DNA of 64,000 nucleotides, taken from contig CAZMIM010000003.1 in assembly GCA_964566505.1 (NCBI GenBank), forward strand, positions 16,463 through 80,462, read 5' to 3'. The DNA comes from an uncultured Candidatus Saccharibacteria bacterium. Lineage in GTDB: Bacteria; Patescibacteriota; Minisyncoccia; Phycocordibacterales; PCTT01. The position numbers and the translations under genes were made by a program. The notes below the pieces were generated by a model. The model was given only the letters and a program-made list of their open reading frames with translations, did not search any database and was not told the origin of the DNA. Each line of letters begins with the position of its first letter. Positions within the stretch are counted from its first letter, which is position 1. This document shows, in pieces, positions 37,415 to 46,330 of the stretch.

Positions 37415-37987
37415 TTGTACATACATATGAGTAATATCTTTAATTTAGCCCTATTGGGTGTTTTTCTTTTCTCAGGAGTTTCCGGCGTTTCAGTGCCGTC
37501 TCCAGTAGTTGATGCGGAGATTATGCCAGTTAATTCTGCCACAATCTCATCACTGAAGCTGACTGGATACAACGCTGTACCCGAGCAAACAAATGAGGAT
37601 CCGCACATTACCGCATCAGGTGCACGATCTAACCACGAGGTTGTGATCGCTCGTTCTAGAGACTTGGCCGGTGATCTTCCATACGGAACTATTGTTGCTC
37701 TCAGCGCAGGTTCTTACAAGGAATCATGTGGATTTGAACAAGTAGAACATCTTATTGGTTATCGTGTGGTAGCAGACACTATGCACCCACGAAAAACGCG
37801 TCAGGTTGATGTCATGTTTGGAACCAACGACACAGTTCGTCTAGGTAAAAAGCATCTCAATCCAGCAATCGTAATGGGAATTTGTGAAGTGTCAGTGGAT
37901 GTCGTAGGTCATATTAGCATCTCCGATATTCCCGATACCCAATATGAACTTGCGATGATGGTAGAAGATCATCTGGCAATGCGATAA
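37415..37987 (+). CDS. secreted 3D-domain (RlpA/MltA-like double-psi beta-barrel) protein
   Basis: Signal peptide; ITASGARSNHEVVIARSRDLAGDLPYGTIVAL resembles the 3D-domain Asp-rich motif. Confidence 0.45.
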   Translation: MYIHMSNIFNLALLGVFLFSGVSGVSVPSPVVDAEIMPVNSATISSLKLTGYNAVPEQTNEDPHITASGARSNHEVVIARSRDLAGDLPYGTIVALSAGSYKESCGFEQVEHLIGYRVVADTMHPRKTRQVDVMFGTNDTVRLGKKHLNPAIVMGICEVSVDVVGHISISDIPDTQYELAMMVEDHLAMR

Positions 37988-38036
37988 AAATTATAATAAT
38001 CACAAAAACACACCGCCAAGGCGGTGTGTTTTTGTT

Positions 38037-38420
38037 TTATTTCTTTTCTTTAAAATCAAGAGAGCATGAGTTGATACAGAATCTTTTTCCTGTAGTTTCT
38101 TCTGGTCCATCATCAAAAACATGACCAAGATGTGCTCCACAGTACGCACAAGAGACTTCTTTTCTTTTCATTCCGTGCGATAGATCTTCTGAGAGTGTGA
38201 TGTTTTCTGTATTTTCAGGTTTATCAAAGCTAGGCCAACCTGTGTGTGAATCAAACTTTGAATCAGAAGAAAAGAGTTCTCTGCCACATACGACACATGT
38301 ATACATACCAGACTCTTTGTGTTTGTAGTATTTGCCCGTGTATGCTGGCTCGGTGCCTTTGTTTTGAGTTACTTCGTATTGCTCGGGTGTGAGCTTTTCT
38401 TTTAGTTCGTCTTTATTCAT
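38037..38420 (-). CDS. msrB: peptide-methionine (R)-S-oxide reductase MsrB
   Basis: CVVCGRELF..GWPSF..RKEVSCAYCGAHLGHVFDDGP has both CxxC pairs and the catalytic Cys. Start at MNKDEL. Confidence 0.88.
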   Translation of the reverse strand: MNKDELKEKLTPEQYEVTQNKGTEPAYTGKYYKHKESGMYTCVVCGRELFSSDSKFDSHTGWPSFDKPENTENITLSEDLSHGMKRKEVSCAYCGAHLGHVFDDGPEETTGKRFCINSCSLDFKEKK

Positions 38421-38442
38421 ATATACATTGTATAATAAAAAC

Positions 38443-39567
38443 ATGAGATTATTTTCAAAACTAGTAATAGTGGCATTTTTATTTGCGCCATTTCTAACAA
38501 GCGCACAGGCACTACACCAAGACACACAAGGTGTGTGGCGTGCACAAGTTGTTGAGGCCACTGAGTCTGAAGAAGTTATTTTGGATGGCCTAGGTTTTTC
38601 TTCAGAGAAGCAGACAATAACAGCTCGTATATTAGAAGGGGAAAGAGAAGGGGATGAAGTTGTTTTTGAAAATGACTATATACAGCTTAAAAAAGGGGAT
38701 CGATTTTACCTGAATTATTTGGTAACAATTCAGGGAAGTGAGATTTATTCTGTTCGTGAAAAAGACAGGGCTTTTGAAATGTATGCACTTTTTGCACTTT
38801 TTGTATTGGTAGTCATTTTCTTTGGGGGTAAGCAAGGTTTTCGCTCACTTTTGTCACTTGTTGGTAGTATTTTTGTAGTTTTGTATTTTTTGGTTCCTGG
38901 TTTGGTATCGGGCTATTCGCCAGTTCTATTGAGCGTTCTGGTGGCGGGTGGAGTGCTATTCTTTGCAATTTTTGTGACCCATGGTTTCAATAGACGCTCA
39001 TTGATAGCATTCGTGGGTACATTTTCTGCCGTTGTTATAACAGGTATTATTGCGCTTGTTTCTATAAAGACCACAGGACTTACTGGTTTTTCAACAGACG
39101 AGAGTGTGTATCTAAACATTAGTACTGGTGGGAGTCTTAATTTTGTAGGTCTTTTGCTTGCTGGAGTGATTATTGGTTCTCTGGGAGCACTTGATGATAT
39201 TGCTGTAACTCAAGTTGCTGTGGTGCGAGAGCTCTTTGCTGCAAACAAAAAAATAAATCCAAAAGAGGTATACGAGAGAGCAATGCGCGTAGGTAAAGAG
39301 CATGTGGGAGCGCTTGTGAACACACTTGTTCTTGCATACACAGGAGCATCTTTGCCACTACTTCTTTTGTTTTCACTTTCTGAGTCTTCATCTTTGATGA
39401 TTATGAACAGTGAAATATTTGCAGCTGAAATTGTTCGCTCTCTTGTGGGAAGCATAGGTCTTGTACTTACAGTACCTATCACAACACTCCTTGCTGTAAT
39501 GTTTCTTAAAAACAAAGACCTAAAACCACTTTCTGATGACCACGGACACCATCATCACCATCACTAA
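38443..39567 (+). CDS. YibE/F-like membrane protein with natural poly-His C-terminus
   Basis: Signal peptide, extracytoplasmic N-domain, then about 8 TM helices; ends DDHGHHHHHH. Confidence 0.5.
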   Translation: MRLFSKLVIVAFLFAPFLTSAQALHQDTQGVWRAQVVEATESEEVILDGLGFSSEKQTITARILEGEREGDEVVFENDYIQLKKGDRFYLNYLVTIQGSEIYSVREKDRAFEMYALFALFVLVVIFFGGKQGFRSLLSLVGSIFVVLYFLVPGLVSGYSPVLLSVLVAGGVLFFAIFVTHGFNRRSLIAFVGTFSAVVITGIIALVSIKTTGLTGFSTDESVYLNISTGGSLNFVGLLLAGVIIGSLGALDDIAVTQVAVVRELFAANKKINPKEVYERAMRVGKEHVGALVNTLVLAYTGASLPLLLLFSLSESSSLMIMNSEIFAAEIVRSLVGSIGLVLTVPITTLLAVMFLKNKDLKPLSDDHGHHHHHH

Positions 39568-39570
39568 TTC

Positions 39571-40065
39571 ATGAGTATAGAGTACGAAAAAGCAGTATTT
39601 GCAGGAGGATATTTCTGGGGCATGGAAGAGCTTTTCAGGAAGCTTCCCGGTGTTGTTGATACACAAACTGGATATGCAGGTGGAGACAATACCGACCCAA
39701 CATATGAGAATCATCCTGGTCATGCAGAAGCTCTAGAGATTACTTACGACTCAGAAAAGATTTCATACAAAGAGCTCTTAGACTTTTTCTTTCGTATACA
39801 CAATCCTACCACTAAAAATCAGCAAGGAAACGATATTGGCGAGTCGTACCGTTCTGCTATTTTCTATTCTAATGAAGAAGAAAAAAATGAAGCACAAGCT
39901 TTTATTGAGATAGTGAATGCGTCTGGTCGATGGAAAGACAAGGTGGTAACTACGCTCGAGCCACTTGGAGATTTTCATGAAGCAGAAGAGTATCACCAAG
40001 ATTATCTCCAGAAAAATCCGGGAGGATATACATGTCATGCAGTATTTTTCGACACATATCTATAG
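39571..40065 (+). CDS. msrA: peptide-methionine (S)-S-oxide reductase MsrA homolog (catalytic Cys replaced by Tyr)
   Basis: [12 protein letters not shown] vs canonical GCFWG; the rest ([24 protein letters not shown]) is strongly MsrA. Confidence 0.8.
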
Positions 40066-40107
40066 CATGTTATAGTAGTAACCGATTATTCACTAACTCA
40101 TATTGCT

Positions 40108-40578
40108 ATGAATGAAAAAGTTGCAAAAAAGGTAGGGGAGGCTTATGCCTTTTCTCAAATTCTTAACAATCTATATAGTGACTACCCTGCGGTAGTGGAG
40201 GAACTTTTGGAAGACAAAAGTACCGATATAGAAAATAAAACTTCTGGGCACATAAGCGGTCTTGAGCGAGTTGCTCAAGAGCTTGAGATGCACGAGGTTG
40301 TTGTTACAAAAGCAGAAAAAACTGTCTCAAAGATTACTGGAATGGGAGAAACATATGTTGGTGACGAGTGGGATAACCCTGTGGAGGTACTAGAGTGGAT
40401 GAGCTTCTTTCTTGGGGCTGCAATTATTCACTGGAACCTTATCCTAGGAAGCGCACAAGAGATGGGGCACGATGATTTTGCTTCAGTGGCTGGTGATGGG
40501 CTTTCATATTTTCAAGAACTATTTCAAGCACTTACTGACAAGTCAGAAGAGGTAGGAAAGGCACGCGCACAAGGATAA
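40108..40578 (+). CDS. hypothetical protein
   Basis: 156 aa, acidic, helical; no motif recognised. Confidence 0.35.
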   Translation: MNEKVAKKVGEAYAFSQILNNLYSDYPAVVEELLEDKSTDIENKTSGHISGLERVAQELEMHEVVVTKAEKTVSKITGMGETYVGDEWDNPVEVLEWMSFFLGAAIIHWNLILGSAQEMGHDDFASVAGDGLSYFQELFQALTDKSEEVGKARAQG

Positions 40579-40694: not shown

Positions 40695-40976
40695 ATGGAA
40701 GAAAGAAAAATGTTTTCAGGTGATTGGAGCTGTGCAAGCTGTGACACCAAAATTAGCGAGTTACCATTTGAGCCTCGTGATACAAGTAATCTCCTTTGTC
40801 GAGATTGTCATCGCGCACAGAGAGCTGACCGACCACGAAAAGAGCGCACTATGTTCCAAGGATCATGGACATGCGCAGGGTGTAACGGAGCTATCACTGA
40901 ACTCCCATTCCAACCTCGAGATGAGAGTAACCTTAAGTGTCGCGATTGTTTCAAGAAAGAAAAGGGATTTGTTTAA
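40695..40976 (+). CDS. tandem CxxC-x18-CxxC zinc-ribbon protein
   Basis: Two internal repeats of MF.G.W.CA.C...ITELPF.PRD.SNL.CRDC. The overlapping 136-aa ORF in another frame is taken as spurious. Confidence 0.6.
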   Translation: MEERKMFSGDWSCASCDTKISELPFEPRDTSNLLCRDCHRAQRADRPRKERTMFQGSWTCAGCNGAITELPFQPRDESNLKCRDCFKKEKGFV

Positions 40977-45991: not shown

Positions 45992-46330
45992 TGGCTCCGC
46001 GGGCGGGATTCGAACCTGCAACCTACCGGTTACACGTATCCTAATATTTCTAAAAGGGGTGGACTATATCATCATCCTCTGAATATTCAGGAGGATGCAA
46101 GGCGCTTCCCAATGTTACGTAATCTGTTACGTAACAAGAGTACTCCCAAAAGGGATAGTCTCTGAACCTTCTTACCTAAATAGGTAAGCTTGGCTGCTGA
46201 TTACCCACGACTTTACGTTTGGGCTTCCAGACAATTCACCTTGTTTTCGACCTACATTTCTGTAGGAAGCTGCTATTTGAAACGAAGTTTCGTGTTACAG
46301 CCGGTTGCTCTACCATTGAGCTACCGCGGA
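45992..46330 (-). tRNA. tRNA gene interrupted by a group I intron in the anticodon loop (intron about 46033-46296); identity Asn(GUU) favoured, Thr(UGU) possible
   Basis: 5' exon TCCGCGGTAGCTCAATGGTAGAGCAACCGGCT(GT) and 3' exon (TAA)CCGGTAGGTTGCAGGTTCGAATCCCGCCCGCGGAGCCA form a full cloverleaf with discriminator G and encoded CCA. The intervening roughly 264 nt carries group I core elements R-like GTTCAGAGACTAT and S-like GATATAGTCC. Confidence 0.8.

Follow-up and report, generated by a model that had tools for sequence, protein, structure and literature searches.

A tyrosine codon at the catalytic cysteine position of an MsrA homologue in an uncultured Patescibacterium

Reduction of methionine sulfoxide by MsrA depends on the cysteine of a GCFWG motif, a strictly conserved and essential residue that turns into a sulfenic acid on attacking the sulfoxide (PMC6316033). 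The stretch of DNA analysed here (the window; 64,000 nt of contig CAZMIM010000003.1, from an uncultured Candidatus Saccharibacteria bacterium) carries an msrA homologue in which this motif reads GYFWG, and the question is what a tyrosine at this position means for the protein and for the genes beside it. The studied interval, 38037-40065, holds three genes, and their identities as given in a preliminary description of the same DNA (msrB, a YibE/F-family membrane protein with an HGHHHHHH end, and msrA, with a complete and divergent MsrB) are borne out by profile searches and by the sequence itself (Table 1). We find that the tyrosine is unique among the closer relatives compared and that the rest of the protein is intact. 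The explanation that we favour, with a probability of roughly 0.6, is that an ordinary two-cysteine MsrA has recently lost its function through a G-to-A substitution, with an intact MsrB alongside.

The altered active site

Against Pfam PF01625 (PMSR; cut-off 23.7) the msrA product scores 199.1 bits and matches profile positions 1-152 of 153; its score for TIGR00401 is 182.5 bits (cut-off 108.1). Among solved structures it is closest to Sinorhizobium MsrA3 (4gwb, E 1e-59) and Mycobacterium tuberculosis MsrA (1nwa, E 8e-56), both two-cysteine peptide-methionine (S)-S-oxide reductases. The window protein aligns with them over its full length, belongs to an equal length class and has in common with them the AGG-x-FWG context, the substrate-binding motifs GHAE and YRSAI and a single C-terminal recycling cysteine in GYTCH. 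Unlike both enzymes, it has a tyrosine as the residue in the place of the nucleophile: in an alignment of the motif without gaps, Tyr14 (AGGYFWG) stands opposite the cysteine of AGGCFWG in 4gwb and 1nwa, so that the first step, formation of a sulfenic acid on that cysteine, is impossible. The preliminary description had read this position and its TAT codon correctly, although it placed the codon at 39618-39620, 8 bases off its actual location and on Trp/Gly codons. Because Tyr14 replaces the cysteine, and because all 238 relatives with a residue at this site have cysteine there, we class the window protein, as judged from its sequence, as an MsrA homologue and not as an active MsrA enzyme.

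The remainder of the active site is retained. The only cysteine in the protein is Cys155 (GGYTCH), in a column with a conservation of 95% or more across 239 relatives, and the GYTCH context is common to 4gwb and 1nwa. M. tuberculosis-type MsrA has one recycling cysteine (PMC6316033), and from this description together with the PDB alignment we infer that Cys155 is its counterpart. Tyr45, Glu53 and Tyr93 are likewise intact and lie in conserved columns; by our own motif comparison we take them as the counterparts of E. coli Tyr82, Glu94 and Tyr134, for which roles in binding the sulfoxide oxygen have been described (PMC6316033).

In the alignment of 239 relatives, 60 columns reach a conservation of 95% or more, and C14Y is the only departure from them, in line with the earlier remark that one C-terminal cysteine is left and that the rest of the protein is well conserved. 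When the conservation threshold is set at 90%, the window MsrA shows 2 departures and 60 other family members show 0-4. Its outgroup distance of 0.446 compares with 0.443-0.488 for the six nearest sisters (rank 15 of 120), and a relative-rate test detects no acceleration, a test that would read alike for a recent change and for an artefact. Signs of relaxed constraint are thus absent from the alignment, as would be seen if the change were very recent, if it were an artefact or if the fold were still selected.

Catalytic-cysteine knock-outs of MsrA have been made in the laboratory, with Cys-to-Ser at E. coli Cys51 or bovine Cys72. The window protein resembles them in that a single residue, the nucleophile, is replaced in an otherwise intact enzyme. 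It differs from them in its natural origin and in carrying a bulky tyrosine instead of a near-isosteric serine, which makes residual substrate binding less likely.

The base call itself is reproduced in a second assembly. Logan contig SRR15635857_258488 (1995 bp) is 100% identical to window positions 38304-40298, with the TAT codon about 1.3 kb and 0.7 kb from its respective ends, and the exact MsrA protein is on record both from NCBI (an 83-kb contig) and from Logan. Because the independently built Logan assembly has the identical base, an assembler or polishing error at the TAT codon appears unlikely. An error common to the underlying reads is still compatible with the identical Logan contig.

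Relatives with and without the catalytic cysteine

Alignment of orthologues, which had been suggested as a check on whether the tyrosine is conserved, places it in no relative. All 119 nearest homologues, taken from the best 120 matches in a protein database of 5.8 billion clusters, have cysteine at the site and the query alone has tyrosine; these homologues are at most 79% identical to it and come mostly from Paceibacteria or Patescibacteria. The same holds for the 86 matches that cover the site at 80 loci in GTDB species-representative genomes (86/86 cysteine), a set to which the window's own genome does not belong. The relatives encode this cysteine by TGT in 46 cases and by TGC in 32, and TAT is one G-to-A transition away from TGT.

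Other MsrA homologues that lack the catalytic cysteine do exist. A metagenome contig collection, scanned for [LF][AS]GGYFWGx[EQ] by means of a degenerate DNA pattern, returned five matches, four of which are MsrA genes in unrelated lineages (Table 1); the fifth, L084, matched by chance and is not an MsrA. For the Colwellia-like gene (L085), all 119 site-covering relatives among its best 120 have cysteine, including relatives that are 96% identical, which makes it another singleton. L085 and the remnant L083 had been the best candidates for a tyrosine-bearing MsrA clade, an idea that was dropped on the strength of these 119 cysteines. The gene order at L085 (1150-2622) is msrB, the tyrosine-bearing msrA and then directly a divergent MsrA-like open reading frame (GGGCHWC, 157 aa).

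A wider sample of 150 diverse representatives of 50% identity clusters contains 112 proteins with cysteine at the site and one each with tyrosine, serine and arginine; each of these three residues is one nucleotide change away from TGY. Protein P0450 reads GGSFWG and is further altered, E to Q and Y to F, in the oxygen-binding site, and P0462 reads GGRFWS and has lost the recycling cysteine too. Because of these extra active-site losses, both look like old pseudo-enzymes with a long-standing loss of catalysis, and some of the MsrA homologues without the catalytic cysteine may be true pseudo-enzymes. The window MsrA has the PMSR fold and the missing motif cysteine in common with P0450 and P0462, but it is altered at Cys14 only, whereas they carry several active-site changes. 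P0399 is a further entry among the natural MsrA homologues without the catalytic cysteine. Taken over all these alignments, the pattern reads as noise, mutational or technical, that affects this codon sporadically, with no tyrosine subfamily.

The locus and its neighbours

The genes that adjoin msrA are listed in Table 1 together with the comparison loci. MsrB scores 174.2 bits against Pfam SelR (PF01641; cut-off 24.9) and 183.4 bits against TIGR00357 (cut-off 113). It has the CxxC pairs C42/C45 and C91/C94 and the catalytic Cys115 in RFCINS. At the usual recycling position it reads HTGWPSF instead of CGWP, and by its sequence we take it as a form without the recycling cysteine. An extra cysteine, Cys119, lies four residues past Cys115 (RFCINSCS) and could be an alternative resolving cysteine.

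Table 1 Features of the studied interval and of the loci compared with it
Feature	Contig or locus	Position	Strand	Basis or remark
msrA homologue (PMSR domain), 164 aa, M. tuberculosis-type short two-Cys class	Window	39571-40065	+	PF01625, TIGR00401; best solved relatives 4gwb, 1nwa
TAT codon, Tyr14, catalytic-Cys position (GCFWG to GYFWG)	Window	39610-39612	+	Sequence and PDB alignment
TGT codon, Cys155 in GGYTCH, retained recycling Cys	Window	40033-40035	+	Sequence and alignment
YibE/F-family membrane protein, 374 aa	Window	38443-39567	+	PF07907, AlphaFold2 model
Codons for the C-terminal HGHHHHHH tail of YibE/F	Window	39541-39564	+	Sequence
msrB, 127 aa, Zn-type, complete	Window	38037-38420	-	SelR, TIGR00357
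Divergent gap, 22 bp, between msrB and yibE/F start codons	Window	38421-38442	.	Sequence
Bidirectional terminator-like hairpin, between upstream open reading frame (37415-37987, +) and msrB 3' end	Window	38002-38035	.	Hairpin call
MsrB-MsrA fusion, GGYFWG	L082	7094-7552
MsrA-MsrB fusion, signal-peptide-like N-terminus, GGYFWG	L086	4432-4881	-
Colwellia-like MsrA, GGYFWG	L085	1626-2126
36-residue MsrA remnant, GGYFWG	L083
YibE/F locus with ZIP permease and Fur-family regulator	L088 (also L089)	L088 5001-7438
YibE/F locus with ZIP permease and Fur-family regulator	L098	2579-5143
YibE/F locus with Fur-family regulator about 0.8 kb off	L096	4001-6354
YibE/F locus near AhpC, CsoR-like repressor and rhodanese	L090
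YibE/F locus with housekeeping genes	L097
YibE/F locus with a different 140-aa PMSR protein 3 kb off, other strand	L087

Only 3 nt separate the yibE/F stop codon from the msrA ATG, and for this reason the two genes are probably co-transcribed. The sequence TGTATAAT at 38429-38436 resembles an extended -10 element and is a putative promoter element; a promoter scan did not call it and gave no -35 match. Since it lies only 6 nt upstream of the yibE/F ATG, yibE/F and msrA may be transcribed as a leaderless mRNA. Nothing resembling a Shine-Dalgarno sequence was seen ahead of the msrB, yibE/F and msrA starts. The hairpin beyond the 3' end of msrB is strong, with a 15-pair stem that includes 7 G-C pairs, and was called on both strands.

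The YibE/F protein scores 245.6 bits against PF07907 (cut-off 27.2) over residues 114-352 and profile positions 2-240 of 241, and its C-terminus is DDHGHHHHHH. Four parts can be told apart in its AlphaFold2 model (predicted local distance difference test score, pLDDT, 88): a helix at the N-terminus, a beta domain (about 85 residues), a bundle of membrane helices and the His-rich tail, which is disordered. A Foldseek comparison of the model with the PDB gave nothing significant (best E 0.045), and its weak partial matches, to helices of RND transporters and to small beta-barrel (OB-fold-like) proteins, offer no mechanistic lead. This architecture is common to at least 120 Patescibacteria homologues (52-67% identity), and 109 of the best 120 have at least three histidines in their last 22 residues, so the His tail is best read from these sequences as a clade trait, independent of the neighbouring genes. 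Members of PF07907 are membrane proteins with no assigned function, and a literature search on the family found no paper; the window member is undistinguished from its clade, in which such a tail is typical. P0122, a 45-aa protein of the same cluster, was considered as a same-species copy of YibE/F and rejected, its sequence being unrelated.

The arrangement of these genes is not conserved. YibE/F was found within about 6 kb of msrA at none of the 80 MsrA loci, many of which have msrB directly upstream of msrA on one strand. Among the nearest MsrA homologues the neighbours differ: Big_5/PG_binding upstream with YgjP and zf_Tbcl_2 downstream in one case, Nramp upstream in another, or unannotated open reading frames. 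Conversely, an Msr gene adjoins YibE/F at none of the six YibE/F loci examined, which are those of the nearest homologues (59-67% identical); a Fur-family regulator lies near YibE/F at three of the six, two of them with a ZIP permease as well. Fur and ZIP neighbours, together with the His-rich tails among homologues, hint at a link between the family and the homeostasis of metal, possibly zinc, in Patescibacteria, and the window YibE/F is probably a metal-homeostasis-related membrane protein. It differs from its Fur/ZIP-adjacent relatives in having no such neighbour: no Fur, ZIP or Nramp gene was found in the 64-kb window.

Three further observations concern the surroundings of msrA and the wider window. 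A gene for an Nramp divalent-metal transporter stands directly upstream of msrA, on the same strand, at L092 (2806-4730) and L093 (1468-3392), where the MsrA homologue is 76% identical; this may be a second instance of a metal-type membrane protein ahead of msrA, or coincidence, there being two cases only. About 0.6 kb 3' of the window msrA lies a gene for a small zf_Tbcl_2 protein (PF23477, two treble-clef zinc-finger repeats; 40695-40976, +), and the contig of the closest MsrA homologue (L091, 5735-6271) encodes a zf_Tbcl_2-domain protein about 0.5 kb 3' of msrA, which is the sole hint of local synteny. Farther along, a tRNA gene at 45992-46330 (-) carries in its anticodon loop a group I intron, 46040-46295, that matches the full-length Rfam model RF00028 with 80.9 bits. 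The last base of the 5' exon is U and that of the intron is G, and the gene is missed by a standard tRNA scan. With introns allowed, ARAGORN calls a tRNA-Asn(GTT) with a 264-nt intron after position 35, an anticodon assignment that hinges on the exact splice site.

Explanations for Tyr14 and what they mean

We favour a simple course of events. In a Patescibacteria (Paceibacteria-like) genome, an ordinary msrA acquired by vertical descent would have undergone a single recent transition, TGT to TAT, that turned the nucleophilic cysteine of GCFWG into tyrosine. Because catalysis starts with that cysteine attacking the sulfoxide sulfur, the product is predicted from its sequence to be inactive as a peptide-Met-(S)-sulfoxide reductase. 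The gene would then be a fresh loss-of-function allele, or a nascent pseudogene, in the sampled population; with the adjacent MsrB intact, repair of the R-epimer should continue. YibE/F would be unrelated to msrA and its position an accident of gene order. Several points count against this account. There is one sampling of the species: the MsrA protein is the sole member of its 90% identity cluster, the only other contig found is the identical Logan one and no alternative cysteine allele is on record, so the tyrosine allele may not be fixed, and no sister MsrA more than 80% identical is available for dating the change. The base at 39611 is known from assembled contigs and not from reads. No second msrA was found in the 64-kb window, and the rest of the genome could hold a functional copy. 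Finally, an intact and unaccelerated MsrA is equally expected if the TAT is an artefact for TGT or if a non-catalytic fold is selected.

The main rival is accordingly that the true codon is TGT. The A at 39611 would then be an error of the library, of amplification or of the consensus, or else a minority allele that the assembler picked. One transition at one base, in a gene whose remainder is perfectly conserved, is what such an error would leave behind, and the singleton Cys-to-Tyr in another metagenome-assembled genome, with cysteine in relatives 96% identical to it, repeats a pattern expected of rare errors. The independent Logan assembly of SRR15635857 nevertheless has the same base, in a contig unbroken for more than 650 bp on each side, and a chance error in the reads would not be expected to prevail in both assemblies, although an early amplification error or shared reads could produce the same outcome; we regard an artefact as unlikely, while giving it more weight than any of the explanations that follow. 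The preliminary description had offered a non-catalytic copy or a TAT/TGT error, and both are still among the most plausible explanations. A conserved non-catalytic paralogue, however, is disfavoured relative to a recent lineage-specific substitution by the uniform cysteine in both sets of relatives (119/119 and 86/86) and by the lack of drift. The same evidence bears on the idea of a selected pseudoenzyme, in which the Tyr14 protein would serve as a methionine-sulfoxide- or peptide-binding module, possibly with YibE/F or MsrB. Its fold and all substrate-binding residues are kept without visible decay, its gene follows yibE/F by only 3 nt, and P0450 and P0462 illustrate that nucleophile-less MsrA-like proteins occur naturally. 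Those clear pseudo-MsrAs, though, have several correlated active-site changes where the window protein has one, the tyrosine is conserved in no relative, the gene arrangement is unique to the window contig and, by structural reasoning, a tyrosine side chain would be likelier to block the sulfoxide pocket than to aid binding. A selected pseudoenzyme thus seems improbable, and we think it more doubtful still that Tyr14-MsrA is a selected dead methionine-sulfoxide-binding protein that is co-expressed with a His-tailed YibE/F metal transporter, senses or shields oxidised methionine and would be the first bacterial pseudo-reductase.

Two further explanations would leave the gene or its locus a functional part in repair. 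In one, whatever the status of Tyr14, msrB, yibE/F and msrA would form a membrane-associated, metal- or redox-linked repair unit, as the preliminary description had proposed. Tight packing speaks for it (a 22-bp divergent gap and a 3-nt gap), as do the Zn-binding type of the MsrB, the Nramp gene directly upstream of one close MsrA homologue and the PMSR gene 3 kb from one YibE/F homologue. The proposal finds no support in the comparison of loci, in which the adjacency is absent from both the 80 MsrA and the six YibE/F loci, YibE/F keeps company with Fur-family regulators (3/6) and ZIP permeases (2/6) instead, and the His-rich tail occurs clade-wide regardless of neighbours; we hold such a unit to be very improbable. 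In the other, the protein would still be a reductase, with the nucleophile supplied by Cys155, which lies on the flexible tail at the C-terminus, or by an external thiol, and with Tyr14 assisting. Cys155 is indeed kept and normally reaches the catalytic cysteine to form a disulfide (PMC6316033 and the alignment), but the motif cysteine is strictly conserved and essential for MsrA reduction (PMC6316033), and the arrangement is found in no relative, 238 of 238 having cysteine at the site. This is the explanation to which we give the least credence.

A recent loss-of-function substitution in msrA consequently remains our preferred account. The sequence feature is real, ordinary in kind and a small annotation point. 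It would be notable only if sister species proved to conserve the tyrosine or if the protein served some purpose other than catalysis, and nothing here suggests either. For annotation, its consequence is that profile-based pipelines would label the gene an active MsrA, given that it passes the Pfam and TIGR00401 cut-offs although the nucleophile is absent. For the organism, the substitution, if real, would be the first step of gene inactivation caught in a reduced-genome Patescibacterium, and would mean that this lineage can do without the S-epimer branch of methionine-sulfoxide repair while it keeps MsrB.

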